A DNA stretch of 64,000 nucleotides, taken from assembly GCF_003018235.1 (NCBI RefSeq), contig NZ_CP027439.1; one strand, 5' to 3'. This stretch comes from Escherichia coli. GTDB taxonomy: Bacteria; Pseudomonadota; Gammaproteobacteria; Enterobacterales; Enterobacteriaceae. The notes beneath the pieces were generated by a model that did no database searches, was not told the DNA's origin, and saw nothing but the letters and a program-made list of their open reading frames with translations. The position numbers and the translations under genes were made by a program. This document shows, piece by piece, positions 1 to 58,383 of the stretch; positions within the stretch are counted from its first letter, which is position 1; the number at the start of each line of letters is the position of its first letter.

Positions 1-1
1 C

Positions 2-1996
2 GGCATACTCAGTGCGCTGGGATACTCCATCAATACCCTGACAATGTTCGGGATGGTGCTGGCCATCGGCCTGCTGGTTGATGACGCCATTGTGGTCGTG
101 GAAAACGTTGAACGCGTAATGGCTGAGGAAGGGCTAAAACCCCGCGCTGCAACACGAAAGTCTATGGAGCAGATCCAGGGGGCGTTGGTCGGCATTGCGC
201 TGGTCTTATCGGCAGTGTTTATTCCTATGGCCTTTTTTGGTGGCAGTACGGGGGTTATCTATCGACAGTTCTCCATTACGATTGTCTCGGCGATGGTGCT
301 GTCAGTGCTTGTTGCCCTCACCCTGACGCCTGCGCTTTGCGCCACTATACTGAAGCCGGTAAAGCCCGGTGAGCATGCCAAAAACCGTGGATTTTTTGGC
401 TGGTTTAACCGCCGTTTCGACGCCAGTAGCTCGCATTATTCACGTGCTGTCGGTCGTATGCTGAACGGAACAGGACGCTACTTAATCATATACGGCGTGA
501 TTGTCCTGGGTATGGCCTGGCTGTTTGCACGTCTGCCAACCGCATTCTTGCCTTCAGAAGATCAGGGCGTATTGGCTACGCAGGCCGTCCTACCCGCAGG
601 CGCGACTCAGGAGCGTTCTCAGCTTATTCTGGATCAGATTAATGACTGGTATCTCAATAAGGAGAAGCAAAACGTTGCTAACGTCCTGACGGTCAATGGT
701 TTTGGGTTCGCCGGTCGCGGGCAGAATATTGGTATTGCCTTTATCGGCCTGAAAGACTGGTCTAAGCGTGAAGGTAGTGAAAACAGCGTTGACGCCATCG
801 CGGCACGCGCTAATGAAGCCTTCTCTAAGCTCATCGATGCGCAAATCGCCGCGTTCAACTTGCCGCCAATTATTGCACTGGGTAACGCAACCGGCTTCGA
901 TTTTGAACTGATTGATCAAGCTGGCCTGGGGCATGAAAAACTCATGGAAGCCCGCAATACCCTGCTCCAGATGGCGCAGCAGCACCCTGACGTATTGATG
1001 GCCGTAAGGCCGAACGGCATGGAAGATACGCCTCAATATCGGATCAATATCGACCAGCAAAAAGCATCAGCACTGGGCGTTTCTCTGGAGGATATTAACA
1101 CCACGCTAAGTACCGCCTGGGCAGGAAGTTACGTCAATGACTTTATGGACAGAGGCAGGGTTAAAAAGGTTTATGTGATGAGCGATGCGTCTTGGCGCAT
1201 GATGCCGGACGATCTCAATAACTGGTACGTTCGCGCCGGTAACGGTAAAATGGTTTCCTTCGCAAGTTTTGCTGACGCTCAGTGGATTTATGGCTCGCCG
1301 CGCCTTGAGCGGTTCAATGGTCTGCCGTCCCTGGAAATACTTGGACAACCTGCACCGGGTCGAAGCTCAGGCGAAGCTATGGCTCTTATGGAGCAGTTAG
1401 CATCGCAGTTACCGAAAGGTATCGGTCACGACTGGACCGGGATGTCATATCAGGAACGCCTGAGTGGTCAGCAGGCTCCGGCGCTTTATGCCCTGTCGTT
1501 GATTATCGTTTTCCTGTGTCTGGCAGCGCTGTATGAAAGCTGGTCTATTCCATTTGCTGTGATGCTGGTAGTACCGCTAGGCGTCGTTGGTGCGTTGCTC
1601 GCAACGACCTTGCGTGGTCTCAATAACGACGTCTATTTCGTTGTCGGCCTGCTTACAACCATCGGTTTATCGGCGAAGAACGCGATCCTGATCGTTGAAT
1701 TTGCCAACGACATGATGGTGAAGGAAGGAAAAGGTCTAATTGAAGCAACGCTTGAGGCAGCACATATGCGTCTGCGCCCGATATTAATGACCTCACTGGC
1801 CTTTATACTCGGGGTTCTGCCACTGGCATTAAGCCGTGGAGCTGGGTCTGGCGCACAGAATGCCGTTGGGACTGGTGTCATTGGTGGGATGGTCGCGGCA
1901 ACGCTGCTGGCGATCTACTTTGTGCCAGTGTTCTTTGTCGTTGTACGCCGTCGTTTTACTGGCAAGCGTGTCAATGATGACGAGGATGATGAGTAA
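2..1996 (+). CDS. RND multidrug efflux permease, AcrB family (5'-partial; C-terminal ~650 aa in window)
   Basis: Frame is open from position 2 ([38 protein letters not shown]...), colinear with AcrB-type transporters to the C-terminus; no start codon in window. Confidence 0.9.
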
Positions 1997-2001
1997 TCAA
2001 A

Positions 2002-2031
2002 ATCACCGGAGCCCCTGCTCCGGTGATTTTT

Positions 2032-2033
<2 letters not shown>
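2002..2033 (+). terminator. Rho-independent terminator after RND gene
   Basis: GC hairpin caccggagc/gctccggtg followed by T-run (attttttc) right after stop codon. Confidence 0.6.
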
Positions 2034-2955
<922 letters not shown>

Positions 2956-3067
2956 TTAATCATGAGAAGGGTTCATAGACGCAATCATTTTAGCCTCGTT
3001 ACTCTCAATAATCACAGTTGATACACTTCTTCACAGTTAAATTCTCCAATTGCTCAGCAGGTTTATA

Positions 3068-3838
3068 ATGAAGGTTTTAATTGTCGGTGCGACCGGCAGT
3101 ATTGGTCGTCATGTTGTAGAAATGTCGATAGAAATGGGACATCAATCGAAAGCCCTGGTCCGTTCCCCAAAAAAAAGAAAATTGTTGCCACAGGGAATTG
3201 AGATTGTTTATGGCGACGTCTCTGTCCCGGAAACATTGACCGGCATTGGAGATGATATCGATGCCGTTATTTTCACCCTGGGATCAGATGGATTAGGCCG
3301 CATTGGTGCTCGGGCAGTGGACTATGGCGGGGTGAAAAATATTCTTCAACAACTTAAGCATCGGCGAGTCAGAGTTGCGCTGATGACTGCCATCGGCGTG
3401 ACAGAAAGAGAAGGTTCGTATAACCGCCAGACGGAAGCGCATGACTGGAAACGTCGTGCGGAACGCCTGGTTCGTGCCAGCGGTCACCCCTATACCATCG
3501 TCAGGCCTGGTTGGTTTGATTACAACAAACCGAATGAACAACAAATCGTCATGTTACAGGGAGACAGACGTCATTCAGGCACACCGATCGATGGCGTGAT
3601 TTCCCGTAAACAAATAGCCAGAGTACTGGTTAGCGCATTAACAGACGATGATGCTAAGAATAAAACGCTTGAACTCATTGCCGAAAAAGGGAAAGAGCAA
3701 CAGAATCTCACCCCACTTTTCTCAGCCCTGCAACAGGACCGCGCAGATAAAAACGATGGTATTCATGATTTAAACAACATGCCCATGGACTCAGAGCCTG
3801 AGTGCGTTGTTCGTGATCTTAATGCAATGACGCAATAA
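3068..3838 (+). CDS. NAD(P)H-binding oxidoreductase, NmrA-like/atypical SDR
   Basis: Rossmann motif MKVLIVGATGSIGRHVV at N-terminus; start chosen at internal ATG of ORF 3050..3838. Confidence 0.75.
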   Translation: MKVLIVGATGSIGRHVVEMSIEMGHQSKALVRSPKKRKLLPQGIEIVYGDVSVPETLTGIGDDIDAVIFTLGSDGLGRIGARAVDYGGVKNILQQLKHRRVRVALMTAIGVTEREGSYNRQTEAHDWKRRAERLVRASGHPYTIVRPGWFDYNKPNEQQIVMLQGDRRHSGTPIDGVISRKQIARVLVSALTDDDAKNKTLELIAEKGKEQQNLTPLFSALQQDRADKNDGIHDLNNMPMDSEPECVVRDLNAMTQ

Positions 3839-3848
3839 GATAAATATA

Positions 3849-3878
3849 AAAAAGGCGGTATATTCTACCGCCTTTTTT
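3849..3878. terminator. Bidirectional hairpin terminator between convergent genes
   Basis: aaaaaaggcggta-tatt-ctaccgcctttttt, stem flanked by A-run and T-run. Confidence 0.65.
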
Positions 3879-3880
3879 AA

Positions 3881-4936
3881 TTACGCCTTCAATGAGGCCA
3901 TATCGATCACAAAGCGATATTTTACATCACTCTTTAGCATCCGCTGCCAGGCCGTGTTAATATCCGAAATATTAATCAACTCAATATCAGACGTTATCTG
4001 ATGCTTTGCACAGAAATCGATCATTTCCTGTGTCTCCGCAATCCCACCAATGACCGAGCCAGCCACCGATTTTCGTCCTAAAATCAGCGGCGCGCTGTTC
4101 AGCATCGGATTCAAGTCTCCCAGATACCCCACAAGCACCAGTGTTCCGCTCAGCGCCAGCGTCGGAATATAGGGATTCAGATCATGCACATAAGGAACCG
4201 TATCGATAATCAAATCAAACTGGTTATGTGCTTCCTGCATCTGCTTTTCATCGGTTGAAATAACAATATGCGTGGCCCCCAGACGGCGAGCATCGGCCTC
4301 TTTGTTCGGCGAACGACTGAATAACGTGACTTCCGCACCCAGCGCTTTGGCTAATTTTATCGCCATATGCCCCAGACCACCCAACCCAACGACCACAACT
4401 TTGCTGCCCGGGCCAACATTCCAGTGACGAAGCTGTGACCAGGTGGTGATACCCGCGCACAGCAGCGGTGCTGCACCTTTTAAATCCAGCGTATCAGGTA
4501 CTTTGATAACGAATTTTTCGGTGACCACAATCTTGTCCGAATAGCCGCCATAGGTTGGCATATGGTCATGCCTGTCAATGTCGTTATAGGTTAAGGTATT
4601 GCCCTCTTCACAGTACTGCTCCAGCCCCTGCTCACAGGGCTTACAATGCTGGCAGGAGTCCACCATGCAACCTACACCGGCATAGTCGCCCACGCGGAAT
4701 TCGGTCACCGCCTTGCCAATCTGAGTCACTCGGCCAATGATTTCATGCCCCGGCACCATCGGATATTTTACACCGCCCCAGTCATTAAACGCATTGTGGA
4801 TGTCTGAGTGACAAACGCCGCTGTATAAAATCTCGATAACCACATCGTTATCGCGCGGATCGCGGCGAACAAAATTGTGTGGTACTAAATCCTCTTTCGC
4901 GGCAAAAGCGGCATAACCTTTCACATTTAAGGTCAT
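3881..4936 (-). CDS. Zinc-type NAD(P)-dependent alcohol dehydrogenase (YahK/cinnamyl-ADH-like)
   Basis: GVCHSDIH zinc motif, GHEIIGRV, GLGGLGHMAIK Rossmann motif; start at ATG 4936 (MTLNVKG) preceded by GGAG. Confidence 0.9.
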   Translation of the reverse strand: MTLNVKGYAAFAAKEDLVPHNFVRRDPRDNDVVIEILYSGVCHSDIHNAFNDWGGVKYPMVPGHEIIGRVTQIGKAVTEFRVGDYAGVGCMVDSCQHCKPCEQGLEQYCEEGNTLTYNDIDRHDHMPTYGGYSDKIVVTEKFVIKVPDTLDLKGAAPLLCAGITTWSQLRHWNVGPGSKVVVVGLGGLGHMAIKLAKALGAEVTLFSRSPNKEADARRLGATHIVISTDEKQMQEAHNQFDLIIDTVPYVHDLNPYIPTLALSGTLVLVGYLGDLNPMLNSAPLILGRKSVAGSVIGGIAETQEMIDFCAKHQITSDIELINISDINTAWQRMLKSDVKYRFVIDMASLKA

Positions 4937-5013
4937 CGTTGAATCTCCGAATAAGAAATGAAACGACATGATGGTCACACGGCGGCCATCATGTCCTTGG
5001 AAGAGTAAGAGGG

Positions 5014-5412
5014 TTATTGCGGGCGTAATTCGCCATATTTATAAGATGCCGTTGCGCCGCCATCAATCAGCAGATCGCTGCCGGTAATGTAGGTACCATT
5101 AGGCCCAAACAGAAACTCTGCCAGCGCACCAATCTCATCCGGCGTGCCTCCCCGCCCTGCCGGCGATTTATCAAGCATATTGCGATAAAACGCACCCCGT
5201 TCTGCGCTATTAAGCTCGTCATAGGCTAGGGGCGTAAAGATGATCCCGGCACTGATGCAGTTAATTCGCGCCCCACGTTTGCCCCACTTCACTGCTTCTG
5301 ACATGACACGGAGTGCATTACAACGCTTGGAAATCTGGTAGGCGTATAAGCTGTCTTCAATATCTTTCATCAGTGGCAACTCGAGCAGTTCCTCCGGCGG
5401 TAACGGGAGGGC
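5014..5412 (-). pseudogene. Truncated SDR oxidoreductase (C-terminal ~130 aa only), paralog of the gene at 6366..7193
   Basis: Translation LPLMKDIEDSLYAYQISKRCNALRVMSEAVKWGKRGARINCISAGIIFTPLAYDEL... aligns to the C-terminal half of the intact SDR; N-terminal half absent. Confidence 0.8.
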
Positions 5413-5535
5413 AGAATTTTCAAGATGTAGGCGTTTTATTTTATGGTTAATAATCACCGCCACTCTTATGGTGAGAGCATAAAAAAGCCCCCACGGGCTT
5501 TATTACTAAATTCAATACAAACAACAAATTATGCT

Positions 5536-5573
5536 CTTAACGTACGTTTTCGTTCCATTGGCCCTCAGACCCC
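5536..5573 (-). repeat. Tn3-family 38-bp terminal inverted repeat (solo end)
   Basis: Reverse complement GGGGTCTGAGGGCCAATGGAACGAAAACGTACGTTAAG matches the Tn3-family IR consensus GGGGTCTGA...TGGAACGAAAAC...CGTTAAG. Confidence 0.8.
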
Positions 5574-6270
5574 TCATACGGCTCTCGATGTATTCGTGGC
5601 AATCGGTTGGAATAGCAAAGGGTAACTGGTTATCCCGTAATGATTTGTCAAAATCGCCAGATGGGATCAGATAATCATCGAAATTCCTGTATCGGCGAGA
5701 TCCCTTTACCCAGATGTCACCTGAACGCAAGACTCCCTTCAGCTCATTCAGCACGCAAAATTCGTAATATTTTCGGTCAATGCCGGTGGGAGTGATCACC
5801 ACCTTTCTCCAGCTTTCCGGGATAAACCTGGTTGGCGCGGAAGGTGGTACTTTTCGGAGTTGTTTTCGATACATCTCTCTGACGGTATCAAGCGCGTCAC
5901 TGAGCTGCATTGCGGTAGGTGCAGCCCTGAACTGCAACGCGGACAGCATCCGGGGGGCGTATTTACGCAGCGTACTGTATTTTTCTGTGATTAGATGCAA
6001 CGGGTCGAAGTTGTCCTTACGTGACAGGAGCCGCGTCTCTTCCACACTGTTGATAAATTCCTGCCAGGGAAGGACGTCTTCTATTGCGGCCCAGGGATCT
6101 TCACCGGATTCTCTGGCATTAAGCAATGCCTGCCCGACGGTAACGTATTGCTTCAGCTTACTCTGAATCAGCTTTCCCGTTTGCTGGAGTCGTTCGGCCT
6201 GCGTGCGTTTTGCCCTGCTGAACAGACTGCCCAGAATACGCTCGTGCAGATCAATAACTTCGTCAGTCAG
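5574..6270 (-). pseudogene. Internal fragment of a Tn3-family transposase (TnpA), truncated at both ends
   Basis: ORF 5512..6306 translation (LSALQFRAAP, KYYEFCVLNELKGVLRSGDIWVKGSRRYRNFDDYLIP) resembles the middle part of Tn3-type TnpA; ~230 aa of an expected ~1000. Confidence 0.5.
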
Positions 6271-6336
6271 CGTTCTAATGATACTGACGATTAATATAAA
6301 TAACATAGCCCAGCCAGAAGGCTGGGCTAACAGGAA

Positions 6337-6364
6337 GGCAGACTATTCACGTGTAGATAGTCTG
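6337..6364 (-). terminator. Hairpin downstream of SDR gene
   Basis: gcagactat-N10-atagtctgc, 9-bp stem immediately 3' of the minus-strand stop. Confidence 0.4.
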
Positions 6365-6365
6365 C

Positions 6366-7193
6366 TTATGGCCTGAGTTCCCCGTATTTATAAGAGGCCG
6401 TCACGCCGCCATCAATCAGAATGTCACTCCCGCTGATATACGTCCCGGCTGGCCCGAAAAGGAGTTCGGCTAATGCACCTATTTCATCCGGGGTTCCACC
6501 TCGTCCGGCTGGCGATTTTTCAAGCATATTCCTGTAAAACTCTCCACGCTCCGGACTCGTTAATTCGTCATAGGCCAGAGGGGTGAAAATAATCCCTGCA
6601 CTGATACAGTTAATGCGCGCTCCGCGTTTACCCCATTTCACGGCTTCCGCCATCACGCGCAGTGCGTTACCACGTTTGGATATTTGATAGGCGTAGAGGC
6701 TGTCATCAATTTCTTTAACGAACGGCAAATCCAGTAATGCCTCAGGTGTCAGCGTGGCTAATGCATCGGCCTGTGACTGGGTCAGGGCATCAACATTCAG
6801 ACGATGACTGGATTGTGAACCGATCACCACAGCGGAGCCTCCGGGGGCAATAACCTTACCAAATTCTTCAAATACGACAGCAGTCCCATATAAATCAACC
6901 CGAAGAATATCTTGGGCTTTGGCCTGTGAGGGGGAGAGCCCCGCTGTATGGATGACGCCTTTTATGTCCCCCAGCTCGGTGGCCGTGCGGACCAGGTTCT
7001 GGACTGACTGTCGGGAACTGACATCAACGACAGCGGTACTGATCGTAAAGCCTGCTTTTGACAGAATTTCTTCGGCTGACTGCGCACTTTCAGCCTTAAT
7101 ATCAGCCAGTAAAATATGCTTACCCACACTGACTCTGCGCGCAATCGCCTGCGCAATTGAGCCACTTCCAATGACCACAATGATCTCTTTCAT
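6366..7193 (-). CDS. Short-chain dehydrogenase/reductase (SDR) family oxidoreductase
   Basis: 275 aa; N-terminal glycine-rich motif IIVVIGSGSIAQAIARR and SDR catalytic YxxxK (YAYQISK). Confidence 0.85.
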   Translation of the reverse strand: MKEIIVVIGSGSIAQAIARRVSVGKHILLADIKAESAQSAEEILSKAGFTISTAVVDVSSRQSVQNLVRTATELGDIKGVIHTAGLSPSQAKAQDILRVDLYGTAVVFEEFGKVIAPGGSAVVIGSQSSHRLNVDALTQSQADALATLTPEALLDLPFVKEIDDSLYAYQISKRGNALRVMAEAVKWGKRGARINCISAGIIFTPLAYDELTSPERGEFYRNMLEKSPAGRGGTPDEIGALAELLFGPAGTYISGSDILIDGGVTASYKYGELRP

Positions 7194-7259
7194 GCGATGT
7201 TCCTTATTGTCGGTGGATCAGTGCGGCCTGATTACAGGCCGCAATCTCACTGGTTGATA

Positions 7260-8408
7260 CTACAATGCGAGTTTAAGGATTGTGGTTAACACATCCGGGG
7301 TGTAGGTCTCAGCCAGCCCGAACCAGCGGGTATTCCCTTCCAGGTTTTCCAGGATACGGGGAAAGTCTGCCTCCGTTATTCCCAGTTGTGACAGACGAGT
7401 TGGGGTACCAATTTTATCAAACCATTTTTCAAGCGCCAGGATGCCTTGTTCAGCGGTTTTCAAACCGAACAGATGCTGCGCAAAACGCTCAAACTGAGAA
7501 GGATTCTGGCTGTGGTACCACTTCATCCATGCAGGCATTACAACGGATAACCCTGCACCATGGGGAACATTAAAGAGGGCTGACAGAGAATGCTCAATCA
7601 TGTGATTAGGGTAGCTGAATCCTGACGTTCCGGCATAGATCAGGCCATTAAGTGCCAGCGTTGCTGCCCATGCAAATTCCGCCCGGGCGTTGTAGTCGCC
7701 CGCATCTGCCAGCAACATTTCCGTCGTCTCCATGACCGTTGCGATAACCGATTCAACCAGACGTGACTGGATTTTCGGCTGCACCGCTGCTGTGAAATAA
7801 CCTTCAATGGAATGGGCGATAATGTCCGCTGCCGAATAGACAAGATAGTCCCGGGAGACCGTCTGCATCAGTGCCGGGTTCACAACGGAGACTTTCGGAA
7901 ACGTATGCACGGAATGCAGAGCAAATTTTTCCAGCGTGGCGTCATTGGTGACAACGGCACCACCGTTCATCTCACTGCCGGTCGCGGCAAGAGTCAGAAC
8001 AGAAAACACGGGTAAGGCAGCTTCGATTTGTCCTTTACCGATAAACAAATCCCAGACGTCGTTCTCATAAAGTGCGCCTGCCGCGACAGATTTCGCACTA
8101 TCCAGTACAGAACCGCCGCCCACGCTTAAAATGGCATCAACCTGGTGAGCACGCGCCAGCTGAATACCTTCTCTGACCTTAGAAATCAGCGGGTTGCTGA
8201 CTATCCCGCCAAACTCTACATACTGAATGCCGTGCTTTGTCAGGCTGTCGCTGATAGTGCTGAACAAACCATCTCGCTTGATGCGGTCACTGCCAAACGC
8301 CAGCAGAACTTTACTGACTTTCTGCTCTGCTAGGATCTGGCCGATCAGCTTTTCTTTGTCTGCACCAAATTCAATTCGGGTCGGGTTATAAAAACTGAAA
8401 TTATCCAT
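7260..8408 (-). CDS. Iron-containing alcohol dehydrogenase (YqhD/BdhA-like aldehyde reductase)
   Basis: 382 aa, N-terminus MDNFSFYNPTRIEFG typical of Fe-ADH family. Confidence 0.85.
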   Translation of the reverse strand: MDNFSFYNPTRIEFGADKEKLIGQILAEQKVSKVLLAFGSDRIKRDGLFSTISDSLTKHGIQYVEFGGIVSNPLISKVREGIQLARAHQVDAILSVGGGSVLDSAKSVAAGALYENDVWDLFIGKGQIEAALPVFSVLTLAATGSEMNGGAVVTNDATLEKFALHSVHTFPKVSVVNPALMQTVSRDYLVYSAADIIAHSIEGYFTAAVQPKIQSRLVESVIATVMETTEMLLADAGDYNARAEFAWAATLALNGLIYAGTSGFSYPNHMIEHSLSALFNVPHGAGLSVVMPAWMKWYHSQNPSQFERFAQHLFGLKTAEQGILALEKWFDKIGTPTRLSQLGITEADFPRILENLEGNTRWFGLAETYTPDVLTTILKLAL

Positions 8409-8541
8409 CAGTCACCTCTGTGAAATTAAGTCTGTGAATGCTGTTCTGTGTAACAACACTATAAGCAACTGACTCACAACCAACCAGATGGTAATATGAT
8501 GAATCAGTTACAACTAAATGATGTAAATAAGAGTACTGCTC

Positions 8542-9498
8542 ATGATTAATGAACTGCGTTCAGTGACCACCTTTATCCGGACTGTTGAGCTGGGAAGTCT
8601 GAGTAAAGCTGCTGAAGCCCAGCAAATATCACCTCAGGCGGCGAGTAAGGCCTTAAAGCAACTCGAAAGCTCTCTGGGCGTGAGGCTGTTTCACCGCACA
8701 ACACGGAGTATGTCGCTCACTGAGGAAGGGCAACGGTTTCTCGAAGCAGCCAAACCAGCACTGACCGGGTTACAGCAGGCTTTTGCTTCTGTCCGGCAGA
8801 CGCGGGAGGGGTTTTCCGGGCCATTGCGCATAGTGGCTCCGCGTTCTGTTGTACAGCATATTATTCACCCTGTGCTGATTGAATATTGTCGGCTTTACCC
8901 GGAAGTTCAGCCTGATGTCCAGCTTGATGACGGGGTGGATAACTGGGTTGAGAAGCGCGTGGATGTTGGTTTTCGGATTGCTGTTTCACCGCAGGATGGG
9001 CTGATTGCCAGACGCCTGTTTCCGTTGCAACTGATTATATGCGCATCGCCTGCATATCTTCGCAAATATGGTATGCCGAAATCACTGCATGACCTCAGTA
9101 ATCACCGCTGTAATACATTTCGACATGCCGCAACCGGGCGATTACTTCCCTGGACTGTGAAGGAAGGAGACAACATACAGGAGCACTATGTTAAGCCTGC
9201 CATGTCGACAAATGATGAGATGCTGGAATTACATGCCGTCCTTGCCGGAGAAGTTATTGCTCAGGTTGCAGCACCGACAGCAGCGCAATACATACGATCA
9301 GGTCAGCTTGTGCCACTGTTACTGGAGAATATCGCTGATGTCCACAGCCTGTTTCTCTATTATGGGAGCCGGGTCGCTCAGCCACTTCGTATTCGCCGTT
9401 TTATTGACCTTGCTGTTGAGCGCCTGGCCAGTAGAAAGGGCTTTGTTTTTTCCTCAGAAGAACTGAGACAGGCACATATTGAAGGTATTGCAATGTAA
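8542..9498 (+). CDS. LysR-family transcriptional regulator
   Basis: HTH region plus LysR effector domain; divergent from Fe-ADH; paralog of 12146..13105. Confidence 0.9.
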   Translation: MINELRSVTTFIRTVELGSLSKAAEAQQISPQAASKALKQLESSLGVRLFHRTTRSMSLTEEGQRFLEAAKPALTGLQQAFASVRQTREGFSGPLRIVAPRSVVQHIIHPVLIEYCRLYPEVQPDVQLDDGVDNWVEKRVDVGFRIAVSPQDGLIARRLFPLQLIICASPAYLRKYGMPKSLHDLSNHRCNTFRHAATGRLLPWTVKEGDNIQEHYVKPAMSTNDEMLELHAVLAGEVIAQVAAPTAAQYIRSGQLVPLLLENIADVHSLFLYYGSRVAQPLRIRRFIDLAVERLASRKGFVFSSEELRQAHIEGIAM

Positions 9499-9717
9499 CA
9501 GTACTGTTCTTCCCGGTATCGAAGTTAATACCTTCAATAAATCCATCACACTGGATGACTTTCTCCCAGATGCACTTCCCTCTCTCACACACAACTCGTT
9601 TGTATAATGTTGCGTGGTGCGAGGGACATCTGCTCCCGCAGCGACCGGAAACATCCCTGCCGTCAGGCAGAGAGCGAGGGACGCTGCCAGACCCTGCATT
9701 TTTTTGTCTATTTTCAT
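9454..9717 (-). CDS. Possible small secreted protein (signal-peptide-like N-terminus)
   Basis: MKIDKKMQGLAASLALCLTAGMFPVAAGA looks like a signal peptide; overlaps the 3' end of the LysR gene by 45 bp; no other support. Confidence 0.2.
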   Translation of the reverse strand: MKIDKKMQGLAASLALCLTAGMFPVAAGADVPRTTQHYTNELCVREGSASGRKSSSVMDLLKVLTSIPGRTVLLHCNTFNMCLSQFF

Positions 9718-9823
9718 ACAGATTTCCTGATACAGGAACGCCCGATTCCTGTCTGTGAATACGTCATGCCAACGAACAGAGAAAAACGGCCCCTGTACGG
9801 AGCCGTTAGCATGGTAAAACAGG

Positions 9824-10600
9824 TTATGACAGGTTACCGGCGTAGACCTGTGTCTGGCCGCCGTCGATGGTAAGATTTATACCGTTGATAAAACTGCTGG
9901 CGTCGGATGCCAGGAACACGACGCCGTCCCCGATCTCATCAGCACGACCAACACGTCCGACGGGGATCTCCGCTGCACATTTGGCGGCGAAGGCTTCAAC
10001 CTCCTCCGGGGTCATACCCTGCACGGTTTCATAGCCTTCAGTCGGGATAGCCCCTGGACTGATAACATTCACGCGGATATTGCGTGTCTTGAGCTCAGTG
10101 GTCCAGACTCGCGCCATGCCGATAACTGCCGCTTTGGTCGCGGCGTAAGTCGTGTATTCCGGCAGACCAATAAAGGCGGTCATGGAGGACGTCAGAATGA
10201 TTGAACCGCCAGCATTCATAATGGGCAGCATGGCTTGTACGGTGAATAACTGCCCCTTAAGGTTGATGTTCAGCATGTTGTCGAAAAACTCTTCGCTCAC
10301 GTCCTCTAGTTTCTTGCCTATGTAGTAGCCGGCATTAGAGAAAATGATGTCCAGATGACCTTTTTCCAGCTGAATGACTGAGGCGACATTCACCATGTCT
10401 TCCTTGCGGGAGACATCGGCAACGATGGCACGGGCATTTGGGCCAATCTGTTTAATCGCCTCATCCAGGACGTCCTGGCGGCGGCCCACTATATAGACAA
10501 AAGCACCTTCTTCAGCAAGGCGCTTTGCGCCCCCCAGACCGAGTCCCGTTCCGCCACCCGTGACCAGTGCCACTTTACCTTTTAACGTTTGAACCGACAT
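9824..10600 (-). CDS. SDR family oxidoreductase
   Basis: 258 aa; KVALVTGGGTGLGLG cofactor motif and NAG motif. Confidence 0.9.
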   Translation of the reverse strand: MSVQTLKGKVALVTGGGTGLGLGGAKRLAEEGAFVYIVGRRQDVLDEAIKQIGPNARAIVADVSRKEDMVNVASVIQLEKGHLDIIFSNAGYYIGKKLEDVSEEFFDNMLNINLKGQLFTVQAMLPIMNAGGSIILTSSMTAFIGLPEYTTYAATKAAVIGMARVWTTELKTRNIRVNVISPGAIPTEGYETVQGMTPEEVEAFAAKCAAEIPVGRVGRADEIGDGVVFLASDASSFINGINLTIDGGQTQVYAGNLS

Positions 10601-10630
10601 AAATATTCCTCTGTTTGTAATACAGGTGGC

Positions 10631-10924
10631 TTACGCGATCGTCTGCACGACGCTCATGCAGGAGAGATCGATAATGTCTTTGATTTTCTCTCCGAGGGCC
10701 AGATGATCAGGGGCGCGCATATAGCGCTCCCAGTCCTCCCGGGAATCGAACTCGGCAATCAGCACCACTGCCTGGGTTTCTGACCAGTCGAGTGTCTTTT
10801 CAACGCTGAAGGCTTTGATCCTCGGGACGATGGAGGGCAATTGGCGAAGGATGTCCACTACAGCAGACAGCTCGGCCTCAGTCTTACCTGGATATGTTTT
10901 GCCTATGAAAATATGTTTCAACAT
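10631..10924 (-). CDS. Dabb-family stress-responsive alpha/beta-barrel protein
   Basis: 97 aa; size and sequence pattern typical of Dabb domain proteins co-transcribed with oxidoreductases. Confidence 0.6.
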   Translation of the reverse strand: MLKHIFIGKTYPGKTEAELSAVVDILRQLPSIVPRIKAFSVEKTLDWSETQAVVLIAEFDSREDWERYMRAPDHLALGEKIKDIIDLSCMSVVQTIA

Positions 10925-10935
10925 TCGGGGCTCCT

Positions 10936-11997
10936 TCAGGCATTTTTCAGCGTAGACATGTCAATAGAGAAACGATATTTGACGTCACCCTTTTCCAGGC
11001 GGACATAAGCTTCATTAATCTCCTGGATGCCGATGACTTCCACATCGGATGTGATGTTGTGCTGACCGCAGAAATCGAGCATTTCCTGCGTTTCAGCAAT
11101 CCCGCCAATAAGTGACCCGGACAGGCTACGGCCGCCAAAAATAAGGCTGTAGGCTGAGACATCAATTTTGTCAGCAGAAGCGCCAACCAGCGTCAGATTA
11201 CCTTCCGGATGCAGCATATTGAGGTAAACATTCAGATCATGTGGAGCGGATACGGTATCGAGAATAAAATCAAACGTACCGGCGTGAGCCTGCATCTCTT
11301 CCGGGTTTCGTGACACCACTACTTCATGAGCACCAACACGGAGTGCATCTTCTTTCTTGGATGGAGATGTGGTGAAGAGAACCACATGTGCGCCCAGGGC
11401 GCGGGCAAATTTTACGCCCATATGTCCTAGTCCGCCCAGACCAACGATACCCACTTTCTGACCGGCCTTTACACCCCAGCGACGGATAGGGGAATAGGCA
11501 GTGATGCCCGCACATACCAGCGGAGCAACACCTGCCAGATCGAGATTTTCCGGTACCTGAAGAACAAAATGCTCATCCACCACAATGCTTTCGGCATAAC
11601 CACCGTAGGTCACCGGAGCAGTACCGTAATTATCCGGTGAGTTATACGTCAGCACCTTGGTAGGGGAATACTGTTCACGATTCGCTTTACAGTGAGGGCA
11701 GGTTGGATCGGCATCGACCAAGCAGCCCACAGCGACAATATCGCCAGCCTTGTGTTTTGTCACCGCCGTGCCCACCGAGATAACCCGGCCTACAATTTCA
11801 TGACCCGGAACAATCGGGTAAATGGTTGGCATGGCGCTGCCGAACTCATCACGCACATGGTGAATGTCAGAGTGGCAAACCCCGCAGAACAGAATATCAA
11901 TCCGGACATCGTGCTCATTCGGATCACGACGCGGGATCGATAACGGTGCAAGTGGGGATGTTGCGGACGTGGCCGCATAAGCTTTGGTTACGTACAT
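10936..11997 (-). CDS. Zinc-type NAD(P)-dependent alcohol dehydrogenase
   Basis: GVCHSDIH, GHEIVGRV, GLGGLGHMGVK motifs; paralog of 3881..4936. Confidence 0.9.
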   Translation of the reverse strand: MYVTKAYAATSATSPLAPLSIPRRDPNEHDVRIDILFCGVCHSDIHHVRDEFGSAMPTIYPIVPGHEIVGRVISVGTAVTKHKAGDIVAVGCLVDADPTCPHCKANREQYSPTKVLTYNSPDNYGTAPVTYGGYAESIVVDEHFVLQVPENLDLAGVAPLVCAGITAYSPIRRWGVKAGQKVGIVGLGGLGHMGVKFARALGAHVVLFTTSPSKKEDALRVGAHEVVVSRNPEEMQAHAGTFDFILDTVSAPHDLNVYLNMLHPEGNLTLVGASADKIDVSAYSLIFGGRSLSGSLIGGIAETQEMLDFCGQHNITSDVEVIGIQEINEAYVRLEKGDVKYRFSIDMSTLKNA

Positions 11998-12145
11998 TCT
12001 TTGCTCCCGTTGATCCCGGCCAGAAGTGCCGGGAAGTGCGACTACTATAGGGAGCTAATTATCAATATAATAGATAGTAAATCATTGAAGCTGTTGCAAG
12101 TATTAATTGATAATAATGTGAGTTATCCTGATAGGGAAAGGCATC

Positions 12146-13105
12146 ATGCTGACAAAAGACATTCGCGCGATAGATATACTGGCGAAAGCTGTGGAACTGG
12201 GCAGCCTGCGCCAGGCCGCTCTCGCAAAAGGGGTGACCTCACAGGCCGCCAGCCAGACACTCGCTCAACTTGAAGACTCACTGGGGGTGCGCCTTCTGCA
12301 CCGCACAACTCGCAGCCTCTCTCTGACAGAGGAGGGCAGGCAACTGCTGGAAGCCACACAACCGGCACTGGCGGTACTGGACCGTGCCCTTACGCGTGCA
12401 CGGCAGGCAAAGGACGAGGTTGCCGGTCCGTTGCGTATTGTTGGTCCCCGATCGGCCTTCACACCGGTTTTATGGCCAGTCATTGACGAATACTGCCGGC
12501 GCTACCCGGACGTTCAGCCAGAAGTGCAGCTTGATGACAACGTGGGGGACTGGGTTCTTGATCGAGTGGACGTGGGGTTTCGGTTTGGTTCTCCGCCTGC
12601 AGAGGGGCTTATCGCACGCCCGCTGTTCCGTGCGCAACTGATTATCTGTGCATCACCGGCATACCTCCGCACGCATGGTGTACCCCGTTCGCTGGAGGAA
12701 CTAGCGTACCACCGCTGCAGCGTCTTTCGCCATCCGGGAACGGATGCAATATTTCCCTGGTACGTAAATATAGGGGGAGAAATCCAGACACGAGAGTTTC
12801 CTCCAACCGTGGCAACAAACAGCACAGACATAGAAGTTGAGGCCACGCTGACCGGACAGGTCATCGCACAGCTCTCATCATTGTCCTCAGCTGCGCTGAT
12901 CCGCGCAGGCCGTCTTGTGCCCTTACTAACAGAGCATGTGGCCAGCCACCTTCATCTGTACGCTTACTACGGGAGCCGCAAAGCGCAGCCGCTGCGGGTC
13001 AGAAAATTTATCGAGCTCGCCGTCGAACGGTTAACGGACAACCGGGAGCTGACTCTGACTACAGATGAACTGCAGACGTATTCTGCTGAAAGGCTGAACC
13101 AGTAA
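12146..13105 (+). CDS. LysR-family transcriptional regulator
   Basis: 319 aa, HTH plus effector domain; divergent from the ADH gene. Confidence 0.9.
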   Translation: MLTKDIRAIDILAKAVELGSLRQAALAKGVTSQAASQTLAQLEDSLGVRLLHRTTRSLSLTEEGRQLLEATQPALAVLDRALTRARQAKDEVAGPLRIVGPRSAFTPVLWPVIDEYCRRYPDVQPEVQLDDNVGDWVLDRVDVGFRFGSPPAEGLIARPLFRAQLIICASPAYLRTHGVPRSLEELAYHRCSVFRHPGTDAIFPWYVNIGGEIQTREFPPTVATNSTDIEVEATLTGQVIAQLSSLSSAALIRAGRLVPLLTEHVASHLHLYAYYGSRKAQPLRVRKFIELAVERLTDNRELTLTTDELQTYSAERLNQ

Positions 13106-58122: not shown

Positions 58123-58383
58123 ATGATGAAAGTCATATTCACGTCGAACCGTTTTATTGATTTTCTTATCCGGCTTTTGATTACAGCGATTGTCATTTCC
58201 CCGGTAATTATCTGGTCGTGGGATACGGTAAAAGAAACCACTGCAGGTGAGATACTTGCTGCTGCTTTCGTTATTTTTTACTCCGGTGTGCTCCTGTTTA
58301 TTCTGTATTTTTGTTTTTCTGCCCTGACTGACCTGCAGAAACCTGATGAAAGAAAAAGTGATGAAAGGAATGAAGATGAATAA
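58123..58383 (+). CDS. trbE: Conjugal transfer protein TrbE
   Basis: 86-aa membrane protein between traN and traF. Confidence 0.75.
   Translation: MMKVIFTSNRFIDFLIRLLITAIVISPVIIWSWDTVKETTAGEILAAAFVIFYSGVLLFILYFCFSALTDLQKPDERKSDERNEDE

Follow-up and report, generated by a model that had tools for sequence, protein, structure and literature searches.

We have analyzed a stretch of 64,000 nucleotides from an Escherichia coli plasmid (contig NZ_CP027439.1; this whole stretch is called the window below) and found that positions 5014-6365 are a non-functional, multi-layer mosaic of mobile-element debris in the accessory region of the plasmid. This scar joins a truncated short-chain dehydrogenase/reductase (SDR) gene, the right end of the Tn3-family element ISEc63, and an internal piece of the transposase gene (tnpA) of a second Tn3-family transposon. 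Taken as a whole, its history is very probably that of an ISEc63 insertion nested in tnpA and modified by later deletions, with the left joint at the terminus of a third element, the insertion sequence (IS) ISEc20 of the IS110 family. All the components are known elements, and the scar is of an ordinary, already known kind that records the private history of one plasmid lineage. Its one mildly unusual feature is a deletion that ends exactly on an IS110-family terminus. The features are as follows (coordinates, strand, description).

5014..5404, minus strand: truncated SDR gene (SDR'), C-terminal amino acids (aa) 148-276 of a 276-aa PRK06940-type SDR
5400..5405, no strand: left junction with breakpoint 5404/5405; GTAACG occurs in the native SDR gene and also arises where the terminal GTAAC of ISEc20 meets the first G of the ISEc63 G-run
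5405..5535, minus strand: sub-terminal 131 bp of ISEc63, from the poly-G tract to the inverted repeat, delimited by alignment with four ISEc63 copies
5536..5573, minus strand: 38-bp right inverted repeat of ISEc63, an exact match to the degenerate Tn3-family pattern
5512..6306, minus strand: spurious chimeric open reading frame (ORF) of 264 aa, of which only residues ~13-244 are TnpA-like
5574..6270, minus strand: internal TnpA fragment of a second, unnamed Tn3-family transposon, aa ~289-519 of 994
6268..6270, no strand: right junction with CAG microhomology, from an alignment of the window, intact tnpA, pEA4_88 and pSCU-111-1
6271..6365, minus strand: 3' flank native to the intact SDR operon, including a terminator hairpin at 6329-6306; scar-free plasmids have it too
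6366..7193, minus strand: intact SDR paralog of 275 aa, outside the scar and not rearranged

The ISEc63 end and the tnpA fragment

The inverted repeat GGGGTCTGAGGGCCAATGGAACGAAAACGTACGTTAAG is located at 5536-5573 on the minus strand and agrees without mismatch with the form expected of Tn3-family repeats (about 38 bp, outer 5'-GGGG, inner ...ACGxTAAG-3'). It is present in a single copy in the window, and no match was expected in 100 shuffles. The outer GGGG of the repeat is at 5573, and the interior of the element therefore lies toward lower coordinates. The original prediction, made from the sequence alone, had described a 38-bp Tn3-family repeat in this position and orientation while allowing that it might be a chance match; the shuffles and the contiguity of the repeat with ISEc63 interior sequence both speak against chance. 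Together with the 131 bp on its inner side, the repeat forms a 169-bp segment (5405-5573) whose identity to the right ends of ISEc63 copies is 97-100% (97% for the sub-terminal piece, compared with the ISEc63 copy at locus L006 4001-4171). ISEc63 is a Tn3-family element with tnpA, tnpR and a small PD-(D/E)XK ORF, and is frequent on plasmids of enterobacteria, where blaKPC, blaOXA-48 or blaTEM contexts are often nearby. The 169-bp segment is present in about 3,000 plasmids with sharp ends in the BLAST tables, and in other plasmids it runs unbroken into the PD-(D/E)XK ORF, tnpR and tnpA of ISEc63. No partner for the repeat was found in the 64-kb window, so that the two repeats bracketing a tnpA that make up a functional Tn3 unit are not present. 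A weak degenerate match with two mismatches at 58165-58202, inside the tra region, is no better than chance, since two or more hits were obtained in 6 of 100 shuffles.

The poly-G tract at the inner end of the segment varies in length among ISEc63 copies (G5, G7 and G11; loci L004, L006 and L007 near 3990-4003), its counterpart in the window being 5405-5411. The tract lies about 45 nucleotides upstream of the ATG of the PD-(D/E)XK ORF; it might be prone to slippage and could have a modulating effect on that ORF.

The sequence immediately outside the repeat comes from the middle of a transposase. More than 1,000 plasmids have genes annotated as "Tn3 family transposase" that match the region 5574-6270/6273 at 80-97% nucleotide identity, and the translation of this region aligns to aa 289-519 of a 994-aa TnpA with 93% amino acid identity. 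Against the NCBIfam model NF033527 (Tn3 family transposase), it covers profile positions 259-507 of 954 (E = 2.4e-72) with a score of 244 bits, below the cut-off of 500, as for a fragment of a family member and not a functional member; it has neither the DNA-binding N-terminus nor the C-terminal DDE domain. A Pfam scan of the 264-aa ORF returned nothing, including no DDE_Tnp_Tn3 match, because the Pfam Tn3 models do not span the middle of TnpA. The transposase-like fragment that had been suspected outside the repeat is thus TnpA both by NF033527 and by alignment. The suspected reading through the repeat is explained by the ORF at 5512-6306 on the minus strand, which starts in the SDR 3' flank, crosses the tnpA fragment and ends inside the ISEc63 repeat.

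The best relative of the fragment, with 97.4% nucleotide identity (locus L002 5001-5697), is a tnpA on the Klebsiella pneumoniae plasmid NZ_CP141562.1, where it belongs to an intact transposon of 9,559 bp (619-10177 of locus L019). This transposon is bounded by 38-bp inverted repeats GGGGTCCGCTTGGAAAACGGAAAATATCCTACGCTAAG (GGGGTCCGCTTGG...) that differ from each other by one mismatch, and beside tnpA and tnpR it carries an SMR transporter, a LysR regulator, an alcohol dehydrogenase (ADH) and three SDR genes. The distinct repeat of its own, together with the lack of detectable nucleotide similarity between the tnpA fragment and the ISEc63 tnpA, indicates that the fragment is from a different Tn3-family transposon than ISEc63. 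The oxidoreductase genes of the window were also considered as cargo of the NZ_CP141562.1 transposon, which was ruled out, as they are only 30-55% related to its genes in amino acids.

The insertion point at 5573/5574 is exact. Intact tnpA reads ...GCCAGAAGCG / TCATACGGCTCT... and is continuous across this point, and the window reads ...CAGACCCC / TCATACGGCTCT... (slashes mark the positions of joints here and below). The clean joint between the tip of the repeat and tnpA thus looks like a genuine transposition end. The ISEc63 end, the foreign tnpA with a different inverted repeat and the continuity of intact tnpA agree with the insertion of one Tn3-family element into the tnpA of another, followed by deletions, as originally proposed. 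Neither the ISEc63 body, nor ISEc20, nor further pieces of the second transposon were found elsewhere in the window by BLAST and inverted-repeat pattern search, which argues that the events were deletions and not inversions.

The left and right junctions

To the left of the ISEc63 segment, 5014-5403 on the minus strand encodes the last 129 aa of an SDR (NF005395 profile positions 147-275), in keeping with the earlier description of about 130 C-terminal residues on the left and an intact paralog, the gene at 6366-7193, on the right. Members of the SDR family have an N-terminal Rossmann NAD(P)-binding region and a catalytic YxxxK; SDR' keeps the YxxxK, and its Rossmann half and promoter are lost. 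SDR' shares 90% nucleotide and 98% amino acid identity (aa 148-276) with the SDR of a conserved Klebsiella plasmid cluster, compared with only 75% and 86% for the neighbouring intact SDR. The two SDR genes are thus old paralogs that belong to different modules. The Klebsiella cluster has the order RND pump/LysR/SDR/ADH/SDR, and positions 2-5405 of the window are 88% identical to it. This left module (RND pump permease, LysR, SDR, ADH and SDR') has its counterpart on Klebsiella IncFIB/HI1B plasmids.

The nucleotide homology of SDR' to its intact ortholog extends through ...GGCGGTAACG and ends at 5405. At the joint, the window reads GGCGGTAAC / GGGAGGGCAG, and the intact Klebsiella SDR natively reads GGCGGTAACGTTGCC, which contains GTAACG. 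On the other side, intact ISEc63 copies have ...GATCTT-G(5-11)-AGGxGGCAGAATTTTC and the window has CCGGCGGTAAC-GGGAGGGCAGAATTTTC. The origin of this arrangement can be addressed with the sister plasmid pSCU-111-1 (NZ_CP051728.1), which is 99.6-99.8% identical to the window from 5400 to 12540. In pSCU-111-1, ISEc20 lies within the ISEc63 poly-G tract (...GATCTTGGGGGGG / TGCCCC...ISEc20...AAAGTAAC / GGGAGGGCAG), with 300 bp of contiguous ISEc63 interior on its far side. The breakpoint in the window is at the same nucleotide as the ISEc20 boundary in pSCU-111-1; the G3-A-G3 sequence is kept, and directly before it stands GTAAC, the five bases with which ISEc20 ends. The body of ISEc20 (a DEDD recombinase gene and a non-coding end) has no BLAST match in the window, and only the 5-bp GTAAC is shared. 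The sister plasmid also has an IS100 (IS21 family) at the position equivalent to 10699-10704 of the window (6-bp alignment overlap), where the window is uninterrupted.

All of eight independent ISEc20 copies, taken from chromosomes and plasmids of E. coli, are arranged as G-run / TGCCCC...GTAAC / G-run, and the empty target site at focB is G6. These results make the ISEc63 poly-G tract a natural target of ISEc20. The tract is occupied by ISEc20 in three different ISEc63 contexts. One is the window/pSCU-111-1 lineage, a second is shared by pSE11-3, CP098948 and a metagenome contig, and the third is that of pEC404/03-1, where ISEc20 was later cut down to about 115 bp by an IS3-family element. 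These observations on ISEc20 come from loci L001 (6558-8005), L009-L016, L005 and L022.

The coincidence of the breakpoint with the ISEc20 boundary, the GTAAC and the retained G3-A-G3 are most simply accounted for by an ISEc20-bearing ancestor. To judge from these sequences, the window most likely descends from such an ancestor via a deletion that ended at the IS terminus. Tn3-family nesting and deletions stand as first suggested, and the probable part of ISEc20 in the left junction had been overlooked. Several points weigh against this reconstruction. No ancestor with both ISEc20 and an intact left SDR was found in the collections searched, which comprise 72,556 plasmids, 5,426 complete E. 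coli genomes, metagenome contigs and species-representative genomes. The GTAAC match could be a coincidence, with a chance of about 1 in 1,000. Both the window and pSCU-111-1 lack the left end of ISEc63, beside which the second copy of a 5-bp target duplication would lie. For the right junction, the pre-scar flank is known from a single comparator, the Escherichia albertii plasmid pEA4_88, which may not be ancestral.

The right junction (6270/6271) links the tnpA fragment to the region downstream of the intact SDR. The tnpA homology stops at ...CGTCAGTCAG, where pEA4_88 has ...CGGCAGCCAG, an imperfect agreement (8 of 10 positions over these sequences). The sequence after the joint (CGTTCTAATGATACTGAC...) is the native 3' flank of the SDR operon, which pEA4_88 carries without the scar. 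The same joint is found in identical form in pSCU-111-1 and is thus older than the split of the two plasmids. The comparison with related plasmids that had been called for at the outset gives a consistent picture, in that pSCU-111-1 shares the right-hand joints and pEA4_88 has the flank without the scar. In pEA4_88, the SDR/Fe-ADH/LysR trio (window 6261-9518) is a discrete 3.26-kb block with 97.9% identity to the window and unrelated DNA on both sides.

The joints differ in their distribution. In the 72,556 plasmids and 5,426 complete E. coli genomes, the SDR'/ISEc63 joint has no match, and pSCU-111-1 alone shares the ISEc63/tnpA' joint. An exact-match scan for the latter in the species-representative genomes gave no further copy. 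The pattern of GTAAC, G-run and ISEc63 end, which covers the SDR'/ISEc63 joint, was found in the metagenome collection only in one pSE11-3-like contig (L020) and in none of the species-representative genomes. Across all the collections searched, the left joint is known from the window only.

Proposed history and alternative readings

Within the history favored here, the identities and limits of the pieces and the structures in the sister plasmid are observed, and the order of the events and the mechanism of each joint are inferred. A Tn3-family transposon, whose 97%-identical relative is the 9.56-kb oxidoreductase-carrying Klebsiella element, would have resided beside the SDR/Fe-ADH/LysR module. 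ISEc63 would then have transposed into codon ~519 of its tnpA, placing the right inverted repeat at 5536-5573. The two Tn3-family elements have different inverted repeats, so that transposition immunity of the target was presumably no block, judging from Tn3-family biology. The loss of the first ~288 tnpA codons, together with all DNA as far as a point 95 bp past the SDR stop codon, would be due to an illegitimate deletion at CAG. The ISEc63 insertion and the CAG deletion could have occurred in either order, but both predate the split from pSCU-111-1. ISEc20 would subsequently have entered the ISEc63 poly-G tract, 169 bp from the tip of the inverted repeat, a state preserved in pSCU-111-1. Finally, in the lineage of the window, a deletion or fusion via GTAACG would have linked the ISEc20 terminus to the interior of a Klebsiella-type SDR gene, which lost its 5' half, with ISEc20 and the rest of ISEc63 lost in the same event.

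For the last step, the alternative to a passive deletion at microhomology is that the ISEc20 recombinase itself made the left junction, in a bridge-RNA-guided, site-specific event at a pseudo-site in the SDR gene. The event would have been either an aberrant excision from a pseudo-end or a recombination between a pseudo-donor and the ISEc63 G-run as target. According to PMC11208160, the bridge RNAs of IS110-family elements have loops that bind target and donor, and the recombinases are able to excise DNA; at least one IS110-family element forms alternative circles from alternative short end sequences, as described in PMC12288879. The breakpoint exactly at the IS terminus would fit such an activity, as would the native SDR sequence GTAAC-G-T-TGCC, both halves of which are similar to those of the ISEc20 end-to-end junction GTAAC-G(n)-TGCCCC. 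The 226-nucleotide non-coding end of ISEc20 (locus L001 7780-8005, minus strand), a candidate bridge RNA, folds into two stem-loops (z = -3.4 versus shuffles). These stem-loops carry CUGCCCCC with GGGGG and UAAUAGGGG with GUAACG, which match the target and the IS ends, GUAACG being the shared hexamer. A second odd joint of the type ...CGTAAC-G / TGCCCC is present in pSE11-3 and in contig L020. There (L005 2540-2560 and L020 40-56), the left flank of ISEc20 is IS91-like DNA that ends in ...TTTTCGTAAC-G / TGCCCC without a G-run and mimics an end-to-end junction. In a search for a native GTAACG in this flank, its homologs were found to diverge 13-18 bp before the joint.

The half-sites, however, are spaced by 2 nucleotides in the SDR gene and by 4-7 G in real junctions, and the similarity of the left half is just 4 nucleotides. 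The assignment of guides is a tentative reading of a minimum-free-energy fold, no Rfam model matched ISEc20, the homologs of the pSE11-3 flank diverge short of its GTAACG joint, and the case is a single instance. We therefore consider a recombinase origin of the junction unlikely. That the ISEc20 recombinase, acting on the pseudo-site GTAACG(T)TGCC and the ISEc63 G-run, excised ISEc20 together with several kilobases of flanking DNA is likewise a doubtful proposal. If true, it would be an RNA-guided off-target deletion, a natural example for bridge RNAs, that remodelled plasmid cargo. A more modest wider point is that the ISEc63 poly-G tract is a recurrent landing site of ISEc20 and that one deletion stops exactly at an IS110-family terminus.

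ISEc20 might also have had no part in the left junction, the SDR gene having been joined directly to the ISEc63 poly-G tract by an illegitimate event, with GTAAC there by chance. GTAACG is indeed native to the SDR gene, homopolymer tracts are fragile, and ISEc20 is absent from the window. Yet this explanation needs two coincidences: the break would have to coincide to the nucleotide with the ISEc20 boundary of a sister plasmid that is 99.8% identical, with the same G3-A-G3, and five bases identical to the IS terminus would have to stand right beside it. We regard it as quite improbable, and prefer descent from an ISEc20-bearing ancestor.

Recombination or rearrangement between duplicated SDR-containing modules, with which the original prediction had found the truncated SDR and its intact paralog consistent, can now be given very little credence. 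Two SDR paralogs in the same orientation do flank the scar. The paralogs are only 75% identical in nucleotides, and the left one is the ortholog of the Klebsiella cluster gene. The right SDR is complete with its native 3' flank, and neither junction falls at homologous positions in the two SDR genes; both are illegitimate joints at microhomology and not crossovers from paralog to paralog. Finally, the chance that 5405-5573 is a self-contained miniature Tn3-derived element (TIME/MITE or IS101-like) instead of truncated ISEc63 is practically negligible, and we rejected this reading: the same 169 bp do recur in thousands of plasmids with sharp BLAST ends, but there is no second inverted repeat at or near 5405 as in the two-repeat TIME or IS101-like elements, the segment continues elsewhere into the ISEc63 ORF, tnpR and tnpA, and the sharp left end, a deletion joint, merely marks where the window ceases to be ISEc63.

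Plasmid context and comparison with known elements

The window comes from an F-type conjugative plasmid that belongs to the pool shared by Escherichia and Klebsiella. NCBIfam recognises TraB, TraC, TraN, TraH, UmuC and a ParB-like protein in it, and its backbone matches thousands of IncF plasmids. The accessory region occupies positions 1-12,500 and contains many oxidoreductase genes, LysR regulators and an RND pump. The scar is the joint of modules with different provenance, Klebsiella-like on the left and shared with Escherichia plasmids at 98-99.8% on the right. It thus documents the assembly of an oxidoreductase-rich IncF accessory region, in which Klebsiella-like and Escherichia modules were joined across transposon debris.

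Nothing in 5014-6365 is expected to be functional, because the TnpA piece is without both ends, ISEc63 is reduced to 169 bp with one inverted repeat, and SDR' is without its cofactor half and upstream region. Two terminator-like hairpins are located on the minus strand, at 6329-6306 and at 5501-5484, the latter within the ISEc63 piece; they would be expected to stop read-through into SDR' and the downstream ADH gene at 3881-4978. A promoter scan found no sigma-70-like promoter in the scar, and an Rfam scan of the scar gave no matches. No support was obtained for expression of the downstream ADH gene from the ISEc63 end, as the promoter scan gave only terminator-like hairpins. The coordinates given in the original prediction all hold within a few bases. 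For annotation, 5014-6365 should be marked as pseudogene fragments plus an ISEc63 remnant and not as genes, and the chimeric ORFs of 149 aa and 264 aa should not be called as genes.

Compared with the complete ISEc63, the window keeps 169 bp of an element of more than 4.1 kb, namely the right inverted repeat and the adjoining 131 bp at 97-100% identity. The copy lacks tnpA, tnpR, res and the left inverted repeat and is therefore immobile. The likeness to the NZ_CP141562.1 transposon is limited to TnpA residues 289-519 (97.4% in nucleotides, 93% in amino acids). Only 697 bp are present in the window, and the inverted repeats, tnpR and cargo of that element are absent from it. The sister plasmid pSCU-111-1 has the same joint of ISEc63 in tnpA and the same joint of tnpA' with the SDR flank as the window. 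It differs in retaining ISEc20 and 300 bp more of ISEc63; in the window, ISEc20 is gone and SDR' forms the other side of the joint. The left truncation of pSCU-111-1 is also different, with ISEc63 position ~3704 joined to a truncated NAD(P)H-binding gene.

Nested Tn3-family insertions, solo inverted repeats, internal transposase fragments and microhomology joints are standard in the accessory regions of enterobacterial plasmids. To our knowledge, adjacent deletions are not a textbook outcome for IS110-family elements. The scar shares with the IS-adjacent deletions and nested mosaics of IncF plasmids its solo inverted repeat, its internal transposase fragment and its cargo truncated at short microhomologies; it differs from them in that the endpoint here is the terminus of an IS110-family element, which encodes a DEDD recombinase with a guide RNA.

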